A stretch of 64,000 bases of DNA from Pseudomonadota bacterium. Lineage in GTDB: Bacteria; Pseudomonadota; Gammaproteobacteria; Acidiferrobacterales; Acidiferrobacteraceae. Every line of letters begins with the position of its first letter. Positions within the stretch are counted from its first letter, which is position 1. Position numbers and translations under genes: made by a program. The notes under the pieces are model-generated. The model saw only the letters and a program-made list of their open reading frames with translations, searched no databases and was not told the origin of the DNA. Location: contig JAJYGP010000063.1 of assembly GCA_021785035.1 (NCBI GenBank), positions 17,254 through 81,253 of the forward strand. The letters run 5' to 3'. Shown here in pieces: positions 12,662 to 56,145 of the stretch.

Positions 12662-13000
12662 GGGAGTTGGCTAGGCAGTCGCTGCCCGCAAGGGTGGAGG
12701 AAAGTCCGGGCTCCACAGGGCAAGGTGCCAGGTAATGCCTGGGAGGCGCGAGCCTACGGAAAGTGCCACAGAAAATATACCGCCCGCTATGCGGGTAAGG
12801 GTGAAATGGTGCGGTAAGAGCGCACCGCGCCGATGGCAACATCGGTGGCAGGGTAAACCCCACCTGGAGCAAGACCGAATAGGGGGACTATGACGTTGGC
12901 CCGCGTCGTCCCCGGGTAGGTTGCTAGAGGCGCTTGGCGACAAGCGTCCCAGAGGAATGACTGCCCACGACAGAACCCGGCTTAACGGCCAACTCCCACC
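12662..13000 (+). ncRNA. rnpB: RNase P RNA, bacterial type A
   Basis: Universal blocks read directly: GGAGGAAAGTCCGGGCTCCACAGGGCA, GGTGCCAGGTAATGCCTGG, ACGGAAAGTGCCACAGAAAA, GGTAAGGGTGAAATGGTGCGGTAAGAGCGCACC, ACAGAACCCGGCTTA. P1 pairing GGGAGTTGGC...GCCAACTCCC closes the molecule. Confidence 0.95.
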
Positions 13001-42111: not shown

Positions 42112-42236
42112 AGACGTACGTTCGTACCTTACCGGATACTTCTGTGAGCTTGCCTTTTATAGTAGTTGAGTTAGCGCCATACGCCAGTCCCCGACGGAGA
42201 GTCATGAGGATTGACTTGACCTTCTTGATTCACTAT

Positions 42237-42253
42237 CTTAGACTAATTCTAAG
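42237..42253. promoter_or_regulatory. 6-5-6 palindrome CTTAGA-ctaat-TCTAAG over the candidate promoter of the rubrerythrin operon
   Basis: Read directly, 25 nt upstream of ATG 42278. TTGACT/TTGACC (42211-42221) lie 17 nt upstream of TATCTT/TAGACT, so the palindrome overlaps the putative -10. Confidence 0.4.
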
Positions 42254-42277: not shown

Positions 42278-42697
42278 ATGAACCTGAAAGGCACTAAAAC
42301 CCATGACAATCTCAAGGCCGCCTTTGCCGGTGAGTCCCAGGCCAACCGCCGTTACCTCTATTTCGCCGCAAAGGCGGACATAGAGGGTTTCAATGACGTC
42401 TCCGCGGTCTTCCGCTCCACCGCCGAAGGGGAAACGGGCCACGCCCACGGTCATCTCGAGTACTTAGAGGCGGTAGGTGATCCTGCCACCGACCTGCCGA
42501 TCGGCAGCACCGCCAATAACTTGAAGGCGGCCATCGCCGGCGAGACCCATGAGTATACTGATATGTACCCGGGTATGGCGAAGTCGGCACGCTCCGAGGG
42601 CTTTGCGGAGATCGCCGACTGGTTTGAGACCTTGGCCAAGGCCGAGCGTTCACATGCCAACCGGTTCCAAAAGGCGCTCGACAGCCTAGGAAAGTAA
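42278..42697 (+). CDS. rbr: Rubrerythrin-family diiron protein (short form, no rubredoxin domain)
   Basis: 139 aa. [29 protein letters not shown]... plus two ExxH diiron motifs (EGETGH, ETHEY/ERSH). No C-terminal CxxC pairs. Confidence 0.88.
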
Positions 42698-42765
42698 GTT
42701 CTTAGATATGATGCGTGAGGATGCGCGGGTCGGCTTTGCCGGCCCGCCTTCTTTTTGGAGGGAGT

Positions 42766-44112
42766 ATGGAGCAAGATAACGGGAAGTCAGTTATGCGCGA
42801 AGGGAACCTCGAGGCTCCGACGCGGCACGCCATCTCTTGGCAGGATCCCGCCTATTTCGATGCGACGGCGATCAATGCTGAACTTTTTCGCGTTTTCGAC
42901 ATCTGCCACGGTTGCCGACGGTGCTTTAACCTCTGTCAGTCGTTTCCGACCCTCTTCGATTTGATTGATAACTCCTCAGGAATGGAGGTGAAGGACGTCT
43001 CGCCTAGCGATTACAGCCGGGTAGTAGACCAGTGCTACCTCTGCGACATGTGCTATATGACGAAGTGCCCTTATGTTCCGCCCCATCCCTGGAACGTCGA
43101 TTTCCCGCACCTCATGTTGCGGGCGAAGGCCGCCAAATTTCGCGACGGCAAGACTCGTTTCCGGGATCGTGTGCTCGCAAGTACGGATGCGGTCGGACGC
43201 TTGGCGGGAATACCGGTTGTCACTGACATCGTCAACGCCGCCAATCGCAATGGCGTTGCGCGCAAGGTCCTAGAGACCGTCCTTGGCGTAGATCACCGGG
43301 CCCATATTCCGAGCTACCACAGCAAAACTTTTCGGAAGGGGTGGCGGTCCCAGGATATCGAACCCGTGACGACGCCGGGCACGACGGGGCGCGTCGCATT
43401 GTTCGCGACATGCTACGGTAACTACAATGAACCCGAGCTCGCAGCGGATTTGGCGAAGGTTTTTTACCACAATGGGATCTCAGTGCGCGTGTTGGACGAG
43501 GAGCGCTGTTGCGGTATGCCGAGACTAGAAGTCGGCGATCTAGACGGCGTGGCCGCCTTAAAGGAGTTCAATATTCCACGGCTTGCGGCGCTCGTGGATG
43601 AGGGTTACGACATCATCGCACCAGTCCCGTCTTGCGTCTTAATGTTTAAGCAGGAATTGCCCTTGCTCTTTCCCGATGACGAGCGTGTCGCGAAGGTAAG
43701 GAAGGCCATGTTTGATCCGTTTGACTACCTGCTTTTGCGCCATAAGGGCGGTCAGATGAGGACGGACTTCAAAAATCCCTTGGGCAAGGTCGCCTATCAC
43801 GTCCCTTGTCATCAACGGGTACAAAATATCGGCTTGAAGACCCGCGATCTCTTGATGATGGTACCGGGTACTACCATAGAGGTGATTGAGCGCTGCTCGG
43901 GCCATGATGGGACTTACGGCGTTAAGCGCGAGTTCTATGAAGACGCGGTCAAGATCGGGCGCCCCGTTGTAAAACGCATCCAGGATGCGGCCCCTGATCA
44001 TTTCATGAGCGATTGTCCCATCGCCGGGCATCACTTGGCGAACGGCATGAGCGGAGGTAGCGCGCCGATATCGCGATACGCGCTTTTGCGTCGGGCCTAC
44101 GGCATTGAGTGA
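42766..44112 (+). CDS. (Fe-S)-binding oxidoreductase, HdrD/GlpC-like with CCG domains
   Basis: Two ferredoxin-type clusters ([11 protein letters not shown]; [13 protein letters not shown]) followed by Cys-rich CCG-type repeats (...ATCYGNY...ERCCGMP...; ...VPCH...CSGHDGTYG). Start moved to ATG 42766 behind GGAGGG. Confidence 0.8.
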
Positions 44113-44139
44113 TCTCATTCCATAAAAGGAGAATGTCTT

Positions 44140-44445
44140 ATGGCGCATGAAGGCATGCATGAGGACCGGTCGGAATTGACAGACGCCACTCGCGAGATGC
44201 ATAGGGCAATTGTCTCGCTTATGGAAGAGCTGGAAGCGATCGATTGGTACCAGCAGCGGGTAGACGCCTGCCGGGATCCGGAGTTGCGCGCGGTTCTCGC
44301 GCATAACCGCGACGAAGAAAAAGAGCATGCGGCTATGACCCTTGAATGGATACGCCGCCACGATTCCGTGTTCGACCACGAATTGCGCGAGTATCTCTTT
44401 CGGGAGGGAAGCATCGTCGGCAAGGAACATGAAAACAAGGCTTAA
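44140..44445 (+). CDS. EncFtn-type (encapsulin-associated) ferritin-like protein, without C-terminal targeting extension
   Basis: 101 aa behind AAAGGAGA. Core ...HRAIVSLMEELEAIDWYQQRVDACRDPELRAVLAHNRDEEKEHAAMTLEWIRRHD... matches, from memory, the Rhodospirillum rubrum EncFtn core almost block for block. Confidence 0.75.
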   Translation: MAHEGMHEDRSELTDATREMHRAIVSLMEELEAIDWYQQRVDACRDPELRAVLAHNRDEEKEHAAMTLEWIRRHDSVFDHELREYLFREGSIVGKEHENKA

Positions 44446-44454
44446 GGAGACCCT

Positions 44455-49131
<4,677 letters not shown>

Positions 49132-49929: not shown

Positions 49930-50076
49930 GGAGCATCGGCGCTCCGACGCGATAGGTGCGGGCTTCAAGTCTGAAGGCGCAAGATGTCAGGAACCTCGAC
50001 GGAACACGGGTGCTCAAGGGGCCTACCCGCAGTGCGGACCCCGTGGCCCATGGAGATGGGCGGGGGCCTGGGCCAC

Positions 50077-50098
50077 TATATATCAATGTTGATATATA
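50077..50098. promoter_or_regulatory. Perfect 10-2-10 palindrome, candidate ArsR operator
   Basis: TATATATCAA-tg-TTGATATATA read directly. Ends 25 nt before the arsR ATG (50124), in an AT-rich island inside GC-rich DNA. Layout is like the 12-2-12 operators of ArsR/SmtB repressors. Confidence 0.6.
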
Positions 50099-50123
50099 TC
50101 GAATAACATATATACTGGCCGCT

Positions 50124-50489
50124 ATGGTCTCTGAAGACACGCTCCTTGCGGCTTTGGGAAATGCCAGCCGTCGACGGTTATTGATGCTGCTTGCAACGTT
50201 TGGCGAGCTCTGTGTCTGTGAACTCGTTCATGCGGTCGATCTCCCGCAAGCCACCGTTTCGCGTCATCTCGCGACGGTCCGCCAGGCGCGCCTTGTTGAG
50301 GCGCGCAGACAAGGGACATGGATGTACTACCGCTTCGCTCGCGAAGTACCGTCGTGGGTCCTGGATATTGTGAATGCCCTACAGGCCGGTCCCGCAGGGG
50401 CGCTTTATCGCGAAGATAAACGCCGACTTCGGGCCATGCCGAATCGGCCTGCCCGTTGTTGTGATTACGAGGAGGAGCGTTCTTCATGA
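50124..50489 (+). CDS. arsR: ArsR/SmtB-family arsenic-responsive repressor
   Basis: 122 aa from ATG 50124. Metal site ELCVCEL in the wHTH. The track ORF starts 168 nt earlier and would run across the palindrome. Confidence 0.88.
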   Translation: MVSEDTLLAALGNASRRRLLMLLATFGELCVCELVHAVDLPQATVSRHLATVRQARLVEARRQGTWMYYRFAREVPSWVLDIVNALQAGPAGALYREDKRRLRAMPNRPARCCDYEEERSS

Positions 50490-50935
50490 GTCGATTTCAC
50501 ATTCATGTGGCGGTCAGTGACATTGACGTCGCTGTGCGGTTTTATAGCGGGCTCTTTGCTCACGCCCCATCGGTCGTGAAGCCCGATTACGCAGAATGGG
50601 TGTTGGCGGATCCGCGGGTGAATTTCGCCGTATCGACGCGCAGCGATGTCCTGGGTCTCAACCACCTGGGGATACAGGCAGAGACCGAAGACGAGCTCGC
50701 GATGTTGACGGCTCGAATCGAAAATGGACCGGGTCCGGTCGTAAAGGAGGGGCTCACAACTTGCTGTTACGCCGAGTCTGACAAGTCTTGGACGTACGAT
50801 CCGGACGGCTTGCCGTGGGAGGCCTATCGCACTATGGGTCAGGCCGCGGCCTTTACGCGCGGCGCGGACAGCGCTTGCTGCGTCCCGACACCGGCTGTGA
50901 TGGTTCCTATGCCAAAGAGCGGTAAGCCGCGGTAG
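50486..50935 (+). CDS. arsI: ArsI/CadI-family glyoxalase-fold metalloenzyme (candidate organoarsenical C-As lyase)
   Basis: 149 aa. HIHVAV..., HLGIQ, vicinal pair in ...[24 protein letters not shown]..., as remembered for ArsI. ATGA overlap with arsR. Confidence 0.65.
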
Positions 50936-50981
50936 AGTCCCCAATTTTTTAAAACGGCCGCCCTGCCGGGAGGAAGCGCGA

Positions 50982-52292
50982 ATGGTTCTAGCATTGGCGG
51001 TATTCGGACTGACCCTGTTTTTGGTGATCGCTCAGCCGAGGGGTCTTGGTATCGGTTGGGGCGCGTCTATAGGAGCGCTGCTCGCTCTTCTTTTGGGTGT
51101 CGTTCATCTCGATAACATCCCCGTGGTTTGGGGTATCGTGTGGAACGCTACGTTCACCTTTGTCGGGCTTATTATCATCTCGCTTCTTCTGGATGAAGCC
51201 GGGTTCTTTCACTGGGCCGCACTGCACATGGCGCGAAAAGGACGGGGCCGGGGCCAGGTGTTGTTCCCCTTGATTATTTTGCTTGGGGCTTTGGTATCGG
51301 CCCTGTTTGCCAATGATGGCGCCGCTCTCATTCTTACACCGATCGTGCTTGCCATGCTTTTGGCGCTCGGGTTCCCCCCGGCCGCCGCTTTTGCCTTTGT
51401 GATAGGCACAGGCTTTGTCGCCGACACAACCTCTTTGCCGTTTGTGATCTCCAATCTTGTCAATATCGTGTCCGCCGATTTCTTTGGCATCGCTTTTCGT
51501 CAGTACGCACTTGTTATGGTGCCGGTCGACCTGGTGGCAGGTCTCTCGACGTTTGCGGCGCTCTGGGTCTATTTTCGGCGCGATATTCCTGCGTCATACG
51601 ATGTGGCCCAATTAAACGACCCCGCGTCGGTGGTTACGGATCCTTTGTTGTTTCGATTGAGCTGGCCTGTGCTCCTCATATTGCTTTTGAGCTACTTTGT
51701 GGCCGGACGGCTGCGGGTGCCGGTTTCGCTGCTGACCGGGATCGCGGCCTTGGTTTTGCTATTGATCGCGGCGCGCGTCTGGCGTGGGGGCAAGACGGCC
51801 ATAGTGCCGGTGGGGAAGGTGTTGCGCGGAGCGCCCTGGCAAATCGTCGTGTTCAGCCTTGGTATGTATTTGGTCGTCTATGGCCTACGTAATGCCGGAC
51901 TCACGGTCATGCTGGCTTCGCTGCTGCATACCTTCGCCGAACACGGCATTTGGGCCGCCACTTTGGGCACAGGGTTTCTGACCGCGGGTCTCTCTGCCGT
52001 CATGAATAATTTACCGACTGTGCTGGTGGGTGCCTTGGCCATCCACGGCATGGCGGCGGTGCCGGCTACGACCCGGCAGGCGATGGTGTATGCGAACGTC
52101 ATAGGGTGCGATATAGGCCCAAAATTCACCCCGCTTGGCAGCCTAGCTACCCTCCTATGGCTACACGTCTTGGCGCGTAAAGGACAGACCATATCGTGGC
52201 GAACTTACATGCGGGTCGGTCTTGCACTAACGCCCGCCGTGCTTTTGGTGACCTTGGTGAGCCTCGTGCTGTCCCTGCAGTGGCTCAACTAA
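50982..52292 (+). CDS. arsB: Arsenite efflux permease ArsB
   Basis: 436 aa, ~12 TM. ArsB-type sequence (...[15 protein letters not shown]..., ...NNLPTVLV...). Confidence 0.88.
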
Positions 52293-52321
52293 CTTGTGAA
52301 TATCCAAACCTAGCAGGGCTT

Positions 52322-52798
52322 ATGCGCGTGCTATTTTTGTGTACCGGCAACAGTTGTCGCAGCCAGATGGCGGAGGGTTGGTTGAGACATCTCGCGGGTT
52401 CCGGCATGGAGGTCGAGTCCGCCGGACTCGAGGCCCAGGGACTGAATCCGGCGGCCGTGCGCGCCCTGGCCGACCGCGGGACCGATATTAGCGCTCAGGC
52501 GTCGAAGGTGGTCGATGCCGCGATGGTGGCCCGCGCCCAGTTGGTCGTGACGGTCTGTGGCCATGCCGATGCGCATTGCCCGGCACTGCCGCGCGCTGTT
52601 GCCAAACAACATTGGCCATTCGATGATCCCGCGCGAGTGACGGGCGATGCTGCGACTATTGGGCGCGCGTTCGAGGAAACGTGTCATGCCATTGAGATGC
52701 GAATGCGGATTTGTTATCGCATACATAGTAGATACAGTAGGGGACAATTTGGAGGGCCGTATTGCCACCATTGTGGGAAATATTGCAAATGGAATTAA
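52322..52798 (+). CDS. arsC: Arsenate reductase, thioredoxin-coupled LMW-PTP type, with an atypical ~25-aa C-terminal extension
   Basis: MRVLFLCTGNSCRSQMAEGW (CX5R loop) and VCGHADAHCP (second and third Cys). Start at ATG 52322. The homologous part ends near ...HAIEMRMR and the reading frame continues into AT-rich DNA. Confidence 0.85.
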   Translation: MRVLFLCTGNSCRSQMAEGWLRHLAGSGMEVESAGLEAQGLNPAAVRALADRGTDISAQASKVVDAAMVARAQLVVTVCGHADAHCPALPRAVAKQHWPFDDPARVTGDAATIGRAFEETCHAIEMRMRICYRIHSRYSRGQFGGPYCHHCGKYCKWN

Positions 52799-55398: not shown

Positions 55399-55872
55399 CT
55401 AGCCGACGATCTCGCGCAGATCTTTTAGTACTGACAAGATGTGGCCTTCGACCTTTACTTTGCGGTATTCGCGCCGTAAGACCCCCTTTGCGTCAATAAT
55501 GAAGGTGCTGCGCTCTATCCCCATCGACTTTTTCCCGTAGAGGTTCTTTTCTTTGATCACATCGAAGGCCGCGCAAAGCGTCCCGTTACTATCGGAGATC
55601 AAGTCGAACGGAAAGCATTGCTTGTTCTTGAAGCCCTCGTGGGACTTCAGGTCGTCGCGCGAAACCCCCAGGATGACGGCGTTGAGGGCCTCGAATTCCT
55701 CGTAATGGTCACGAAAGTCCTGCCCCTCTGTCGTACAGCCGGGAGTGTTGTCTTTGGGGTAAAAGTACAATATAAGGTTTTTACCCCGTAATTCGGATAG
55801 TCGAAAGCTTTGGTCGTCAGTGGCCTGAACGGCCAAATCCGGGATCGGTTGACCGATTTCAATTGTGTTCAT
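55399..55872 (-). CDS. bcp: Thioredoxin-dependent peroxiredoxin Bcp
   Basis: 157 aa from ATG (rc of 55870-55872): MNTIEIGQPIPDL...YFYPKDNTPGCTTE (peroxidatic Cys). The track ORF's 66-codon N-terminal extension has no support. Confidence 0.88.
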   Translation of the reverse strand: MNTIEIGQPIPDLAVQATDDQSFRLSELRGKNLILYFYPKDNTPGCTTEGQDFRDHYEEFEALNAVILGVSRDDLKSHEGFKNKQCFPFDLISDSNGTLCAAFDVIKEKNLYGKKSMGIERSTFIIDAKGVLRREYRKVKVEGHILSVLKDLREIVG

Positions 55873-56145
55873 GGGCGCCTCTCTGTTGGTGGGCCATAGG
55901 GTATTGTAACAAGAGCAAGGTTGTCGACCACAACGGTAAGGAAGACGCGCTTTGCTTGGCCGCTCTTCGTTCAGTACAATACACAAGGGGCAGGAAGCGG
56001 TGCCGCGACAAATTAAAAATCTCTTTCGCGAAAAGTCGGACCGCGCTCGAAGAACGAGCTGTGACGTCATGTTTGTACGGCACGGCGGACTATTCGTGCG
56101 CCTGCAGCTCTAGGGGATTTTCTAGGGCGTCACCAGGGCTCGTTC

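Follow-up and report, generated by a model that had tools for sequence, protein, structure and literature searches.

The 101-residue protein encoded at 44140..44445 on the + strand of the window (the whole stretch of 64,000 nucleotides analysed here) is a genuine encapsulin-type ferritin (EncFtn), tail-less and with a full half-ferritin core. It belongs to a class that is already recognised, named and structurally solved, namely the short EncFtn-family ferritin-like proteins without targeting peptide, called s-FLP or Non-EncFtn. Its gene is the third in a four-gene, same-strand unit with gaps of 68, 27 and 9 nt, and this unit is the peroxide-defence cluster published for aerobic-type rubrerythrin, into which an s-FLP gene is optionally inserted. 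By analogy with the EncFtn proteins, s-FLP is probably (at a rough probability of 0.6) a free cytosolic decameric di-iron ferroxidase that removes labile Fe(II) with O2 or H2O2 alongside rubrerythrin (RBR) and an Fe-S oxidoreductase (RFO).

Family identity, ferroxidase site and C-terminus

The translation, MEELEAIDWY...RDEEKEHAAMTLEW...YLFREGSIVGKEHENKA, is identical to the sequence first quoted, and direct reading of the DNA reveals a Shine-Dalgarno sequence, AAGGAG, at 44126..44131 (+), 8 nt 5' of the ATG. The original prediction assigned the protein to the EncFtn family, and profile searches confirm this assignment: it matches Pfam PF22277 (EncFtn-like) with an E value of 1.6e-41 and 140.4 bits (cutoff 27) over profile positions 2-85 of 85, and NCBIfam TIGR04535 with 131.8 bits, above the cutoff of 125. 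Weak cross-matches to the Rubrerythrin and COQ7 models of Pfam are seen for this family as well. The best match in the PDB is 3k6c (NE0167 from Nitrosomonas europaea, 95 aa; E 6e-37, residues 1-91), and the R. rubrum EncFtn structure 5da5 is matched over residues 5-94 (E 1.7e-34).

Alignment with 5da5, at an offset of -2, equates the ferroxidase residues E30, E60, H63 and Y37, including the EXXH motif, with E32, E62, H65 and Y39 of the R. rubrum protein; the Glu, His and Tyr positions are thus intact, as had been claimed. The auxiliary residues E29, E32, W36, H55, E59 and E62 are likewise all present in this alignment, and both the ferroxidase and the auxiliary residues are invariant across 154 distinct relatives.

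The short length of the protein is not a truncation artefact, because orthologues of 98-101 aa are kept in Acidiferrobacter genomes and the next gene begins 9 nt past the stop codon. The identical protein is present in two metagenome-assembled genomes (MAGs), GCA_027440465.1 and GCA_027440495.1, and the orthologue from Acidiferrobacter thiooxydans, GCA_003333315.1, is 85% identical, with the four-gene order unchanged. By itself, the length could suggest a truncated relic of a cargo gene left behind after loss of the shell. This idea is effectively refuted by the thousands of homologues of 94-104 aa that share 70-99% identity and invariant catalytic residues, and by the gene itself, which has a ribosome-binding site and is followed so closely by the next gene, with no remnant of a targeting peptide (TP).

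A missing targeting tail was also part of the original prediction, and an alignment of 22 sequences that includes tailed EncFtn proteins bears it out. The tailed, TP-bearing homologues continue for another 25-45 residues, up to a terminal sequence of the GSLGIGSLK type, whereas the window s-FLP terminates approximately 4 residues beyond the shared core, its tail being GSIVGKEHENKA. No targeting peptide of the (G)SLGIGSLK or hydrophobic-x-hydrophobic-G-x-hydrophobic type is found in the window protein.

The novelty implied for a tail-less, shell-less EncFtn does not hold, since the class appears in two earlier publications. "Non-EncFtn" is a separate group in the work of He et al. (2016; PMC5012862), for which 3k6c served as the molecular-replacement model, and both the s-FLP naming and the choice of 3k6c as type structure come from a 2024 review (Eren, 2024; PMC11202242). 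The review describes 3k6c as a decamer; the entry itself holds 10 chains and is tail-less, and the crystal structure is unpublished. The review also lists LFTD(E/N)KPIAHE as a putative, uncharacterised targeting sequence and leaves the encapsulation status of these proteins unknown (PMC11202242). Compared with this consensus, the C-terminus of the window protein, LFREGSIVGKEHENKA, keeps L-F, Ile and the terminal His, but not KPIAHE.

Short forms and shell-linked forms

In a profile-free scan covering 1.84 billion representatives, the family amounts to 1,243 clusters at 50% identity. Among genomic relatives at species level, the 80 nearest to the window protein are short (94-102 aa wherever the ORF is cleanly readable); they belong to Gamma-, Beta- and Alphaproteobacteria, apart from a few records that carry the label of Acidobacteria or another phylum. 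Short and shell-linked forms separate in a neighbour-joining (NJ) tree of 154 sequences, which is built on only 93 columns, so that its deep order is not robust; the window protein falls in the short clade beside the Acidiferrobacter orthologues. The two groups also differ in sequence signatures. Cysteine occupies position 44 in 95 of the 97 short forms and in 2 of the 57 long ones, the shell-linked forms carrying Thr or Ala there; a His lies within the last few residues in 92/97 short and 5/57 long forms; and a TP-like motif occurs in none of the 97 short forms and in 50 of the 57 long ones. The window s-FLP bears both signatures of its clade, Cys44 (44269-44271) and the tail His97 (44428-44430). 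We found no description of the Cys44 and terminal-His clade signatures in the literature.

The Acidiferrobacter-type s-FLPs (the window protein and those of loci L005 and L008) lie at the border between the shell-linked and short clades, a placement that is tentative on 93 columns. Their tail, GSIV[GA]KEH, looks like the beginning of cargo linkers, GSIVAQE... Among other candidates considered, P. multocida PMCNA_RS00975 was rejected as an s-FLP, being a prophage capsid-like protein. Ten unusually long members of the family include no fusion to RBR, RFO or DUF3501; as Rosetta-stone evidence they were discarded, as they contain only EncFtn domains or are read-through or frameshift artefacts (Linocin, PdxA, PCI).

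The search for shells used T. maritima encapsulin as a probe, and its match to 3dkt (589 bits, full length) served to validate it. It detects no family-1 shell gene in the 64-kb window (best E 3.6), and Pfam and context annotation, partly our own reading of the ORF list, gives no HK97-fold gene there; the claim that no shell gene is adjacent therefore stands for the window. At 87 s-FLP loci, no shell gene is found under sensitive phmmer settings (best E 0.25). As a positive control, the probe was run by tblastn (E <= 1e-4) against 80 metagenomic loci around tailed EncFtn, a set comprising 61 long forms (at least 119 aa) and 18 complete short forms. A shell gene lies 0-38 bp downstream in 52 of the 61 long forms, and seven of the nine shell-less long forms have less than 900 bp of contig remaining. 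Within 5-10 kb, a shell gene is found at none of the 18 metagenomic short loci, at none of the 80 genomic short loci and at no Acidiferrobacter locus. The split is clean, in that tailed forms go together with a neighbouring shell gene and tail-less forms with none.

Two long EncFtn proteins (L122 and L166) have TP-like tails and more than 2.6 kb of downstream contig with no detectable family-1 shell. They are possibly secondary cargos encoded apart from the shell.

This split bears on the speculation in the 2024 review that s-FLPs are still encapsulin cargo, belonging to a distally encoded shell and loaded via a non-canonical short C-terminal motif (PMC11202242). The C-termini of s-FLPs are indeed conserved (P-I-A-H-x), a short linker poses no steric obstacle to encapsulation according to the same review, and secondary cargo encoded apart from the shell operon has been proposed elsewhere, for example for BfrB in M. 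tuberculosis. However, a shell gene is a near-constant neighbour of tailed forms but is missing from the 5-8 kb around every one of the approximately 100 short-form loci; the hydrophobic L-x-I/V-G-x-L pattern occurs in 0 of 97 short tails; the tail of the window protein departs from the proposed KPIAHE motif; and the short forms are a separate clade. A weak argument in the same direction is that s-FLP genera are almost absent among the encapsulin census entries listed, which include a single Nitrosomonas sp. entry. Overall, a cargo role for the window s-FLP appears unlikely.

The rubrerythrin operon and its control

The first gene of the four-gene unit, at 42278..42697 (+), encodes an aerobic-type rubrerythrin of 139 aa with no rubredoxin domain (Pfam PF02915, 104.9 bits), whose closest PDB entries are the B. 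pseudomallei Rbr 9onm/4di0 (245 bits) and, at 178 bits, sulerythrin 1j30. The second, RFO, at 42766..44112 (+), is a GlpC/HdrD-like CCG Fe-S oxidoreductase (Pfam CCG, 55.8 bits) of 448 aa in identical contigs; it scores below the cutoff of the GlpC models, and no solved structural relative of it was found. Downstream of the s-FLP gene, 44455..45036 (+) encodes a DUF3501 protein of 193 aa (Pfam PF12007, 234.7 bits; PDB 3fjv, E 1.6e-54). The neighbours named in the original prediction, an Fe-S oxidoreductase, DUF3501 and rubrerythrin, are thus in place, with the CCG protein directly upstream, DUF3501 downstream and RBR further upstream. The four-gene order is conserved in Acidiferrobacter, Thiobacillus, Chromatiaceae, Competibacterales and other lineages. 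The stop codon of the DUF3501 gene overlaps the start of parE (45033-45038), and parE/parC recur after the rubrerythrin cluster in several lineages (neighbour clusters of 4 and 3 loci, and also L168), an unexpected adjacency.

An aerobic-type three-gene cluster of RBR, RFO and DUF3501 has been published (Cardenas et al., 2016; PMC5114695), and the B. pseudomallei Rbr, from the same cluster type, is induced by oxidative stress (PMC12154734). Neither Cardenas et al. (2016) nor the B. pseudomallei Rbr preprint mentions an EncFtn-like gene or an encapsulin, and no literature joining DUF3501 with encapsulin was found.

The s-FLP is not a fixed component of this cluster. The full RBR-RFO-s-FLP-DUF3501 arrangement is seen at 9 of the 80 genomic loci, with 2 more cut by contig ends, and DUF3501 alone lies upstream of the s-FLP gene at one locus; at the remaining loci, none of RBR, RFO and DUF3501 is found within 8 kb. 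Four of the 18 metagenomic short forms sit in the RBR-RFO-DUF3501 cluster. Conversely, in the clusters of four DUF3501 relatives at approximately 65% identity, an s-FLP gene is present in one and absent from three. Cluster-embedded s-FLPs are also scattered patchily over the short clade in the NJ tree. These three observations, namely the three related clusters without s-FLP, the patchy placement and the few loci inside a cluster, identify the s-FLP as an optional insert. In a Thiomargarita-labelled MAG (L022), DUF3501 lies 81 nt upstream of the s-FLP gene and no RBR or RFO is detected within 8 kb.

The DUF3501 link is therefore generally not a property of s-FLPs, and the proposal that DUF3501 is a dedicated partner fails on these counts (approximately 11/80 and 4/18 loci, and three of four related clusters without s-FLP) and on the location of NE0167 elsewhere. 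An all-vs-all clustering of ORFs within 5 kb on either side at the 80 loci reveals no other conserved partner of free s-FLPs, no family besides RBR, RFO and DUF3501 occurring at more than 5 loci. The small neighbour clusters, judged by eye, include a response regulator, MscS, class-III ADH, S-formylglutathione hydrolase, CFA synthase, an SDR and glutathione reductase. Because most s-FLPs stand alone in such unrelated contexts, the operon context in the window may say little on the general role of the family.

Upstream of RBR is a perfect palindrome, TTAGACTAATTCTAA (TTAGA-N5-TCTAA), at 42238..42252. It is a candidate 7-1-7 Per-box/Fur-family operator that overlies a predicted -10 element, where two overlapping sigma-70-like promoter matches, by consensus only (9/12 each), extend over 42211..42244 (+) 5' of the gene. 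The palindrome is the sole such site in the window at one mismatch or fewer. Of 15 distinct related clusters from Gamma- and Betaproteobacteria, 13 have it 5' of RBR; among the palindrome-bearing clusters, one is without s-FLP and one has two copies of the element. Compared with the published Per-box consensus, TTANAATNATTNTAA, the window palindrome has 1 mismatch, and that of one other locus is perfect. The element also resembles the ICE motif of Irr. Because the palindrome fits the Per-box and resembles the ICE motif, the regulator of the RBR cluster is likely a Fur-family, peroxide- or iron-sensing repressor. No description of a Per-box-like operator for the RBR-RFO-DUF3501 cluster was found in the literature. 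Upstream of 79 free s-FLP genes, neither a Fur box nor a shared 8-mer is enriched above background.

Between RBR and RFO, a GC-rich hairpin with a 10-bp stem (9 GC pairs) is followed by a T-run (42725..42747, +). This candidate attenuator or partial terminator may dampen read-through into RFO, s-FLP and DUF3501, possibly allowing high expression of RBR and lower expression of the downstream genes.

The remainder of the window is housekeeping in character, with cytochrome bc1, RNase P RNA, dcw, secA, argJ, pilBD, parEC, truA and sensor kinases, as annotated from Pfam and context and in part from reading of the ORF list rather than from profile matches. RNase P class A RNA (337 bits) lies at 12663-13000 (+), directly upstream of mraZ and the dcw cluster, and no tRNA gene is present anywhere in the window. 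Downstream of truA is an ars operon (49956-52798) encoding ArsR, a 149-aa protein, ArsB and an ArsC of the LMW-phosphatase type. A second peroxide-defence gene, for a Bcp-like AhpC/TSA peroxiredoxin, is located beside a PhoH/PIN gene at 55399-56070 (-); no Per-box-like site is found at it.

Function and comparison with known systems

In the favoured reading, based on the known EncFtn structures, s-FLP would assemble as a ring-shaped decamer, like 3k6c and R. rubrum EncFtn, with di-iron ferroxidase centres formed at its dimer interfaces, and would work free in the cytosol. During peroxide or iron stress it would oxidise labile Fe(II) with O2 or H2O2 and so limit Fenton chemistry, while rubrerythrin would reduce H2O2 with electrons supplied via RFO, the presumed donor. 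Isolated EncFtn has no storage cavity, and in the published view it depends on the shell to hold the iron that it has oxidised; without a shell, a ferroxidase would thus require a sink for Fe(III). Of the acceptors suggested in the original prediction, a classical ferritin finds no candidate here, as no classical ferritin, Bfr or Dps is encoded in the 64-kb window according to an annotation made partly by ORF-list reading. Nor is DUF3501 supported as an iron acceptor: a confident AF2 model (pLDDT 90) matches only 3fjv, an uncharacterised structure of DUF3501 itself, and the idea of a recognisable iron-binding or cage fold was accordingly dropped. The alternative role raised in the same prediction, one related to O2 or H2O2, accords better with the operon context, given the rubrerythrin peroxide-defence cluster and its Per-box-like operator.

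A rival reading is a small rubrerythrin-like H2O2 or O2 reductase, in which the di-iron site would be a stable cofactor re-reduced by RFO, making s-FLP a second peroxidase module. The gene is inserted directly after that of RFO, the predicted electron-transfer protein; the fold and the EXXH di-iron site are common to s-FLP and rubrerythrins, as the weak Pfam cross-matches reflect; no Fe(III) acceptor or iron sink would be necessary; and the clade-specific Cys44 and tail His could serve in redox or electron transfer. However, no RFO lies near most s-FLPs, NE0167 among them, and every residue assigned to iron entry or exit in ferroxidase-type EncFtn is conserved. A reductase is thus possible but doubtful.

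It is very unlikely that s-FLP instead supplies iron, as a donor or metallochaperone, to restore the rubrerythrin di-iron site or the RFO Fe-S clusters once oxidation has damaged them. The operon is shared with two iron proteins, and the B. pseudomallei Rbr binds metals promiscuously (PMC12154734), suggesting that control of metallation could matter; nevertheless, s-FLP is optional in such clusters and most s-FLPs are encoded elsewhere.

The free ferroxidase remains our preferred reading. A broader proposal, which we offer tentatively, is that in some sulfur- or iron-oxidising Proteobacteria s-FLP would be the fourth component of a PerR-type-regulated rubrerythrin system, a shell-independent ring that takes electrons from RFO or passes iron to RBR or DUF3501, with Cys44 and the C-terminal His replacing the function of the docking tail. 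Because window-type s-FLPs branch beside the shell-linked clade and have a linker-like tail, they could represent a free ancestral state, from which encapsulated ferritins may have arisen by gain of a targeting peptide.

What a cavity-less ferritin-like ring does without a shell is a real question, as the 2024 review recognises (PMC11202242). The window locus does not open this question; it has existed since 2009-2016, owing to NE0167/3k6c. The present survey narrows it: the short forms are a separate clade with a near-invariant Cys and terminal His of their own, they are essentially never near a shell gene while tailed forms almost always are, and they have no universal partner gene. In about one-seventh of the sampled lineages, s-FLP has been recruited to a peroxide-defence operon with a Fur-family-type operator, and this operon, with its defined neighbours and operator, is a tractable setting in which to distinguish a ferroxidase from a peroxidase or an iron donor. 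Modestly new are the optional membership of s-FLP in a Per-box-type rubrerythrin operon and the clade signatures Cys44 and terminal His.

Among known systems, NE0167 is similar to the window s-FLP in being short, in having no targeting peptide, in sharing the same ferroxidase residues, Cys44 and C-terminal His, and in having no shell gene within 8 kb. There are also differences. The tail of NE0167 is of the common ...NKPIAH type, in contrast to GSIVGKEHENKA in the window protein, and the NJ tree places the window and Acidiferrobacter s-FLPs, unlike NE0167, on the margin of the short clade. The NE0167 gene, furthermore, stands outside a rubrerythrin cluster and comes after an RND efflux operon, which it overlaps. 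At that locus (L172/L173, 8001-8288), the gene overlaps the end of the RND pump gene of an OEP-MFP-ACR_tran operon by 11 nt, which suggests co-translation with the exporter.

R. rubrum EncFtn (Rru_A0973; 5da5) and the TP-bearing FLP cargos agree with the window s-FLP in fold and in the residues of the ferroxidase centre, the entry site and the outer site. The R. rubrum protein, however, has a disordered linker of approximately 40 residues leading to SLGIGSLK, together with an adjacent shell gene, and the window s-FLP has neither. The Cardenas cluster (4di0, 3fjv), like the unit in the window, brings a rubredoxin-less RBR together with DUF3501 and a COG0247/CCG Fe-S oxidoreductase as a unit on a single strand; it consists of these three genes, whereas the window and a minority of proteobacterial lineages add an s-FLP gene between RFO and DUF3501.
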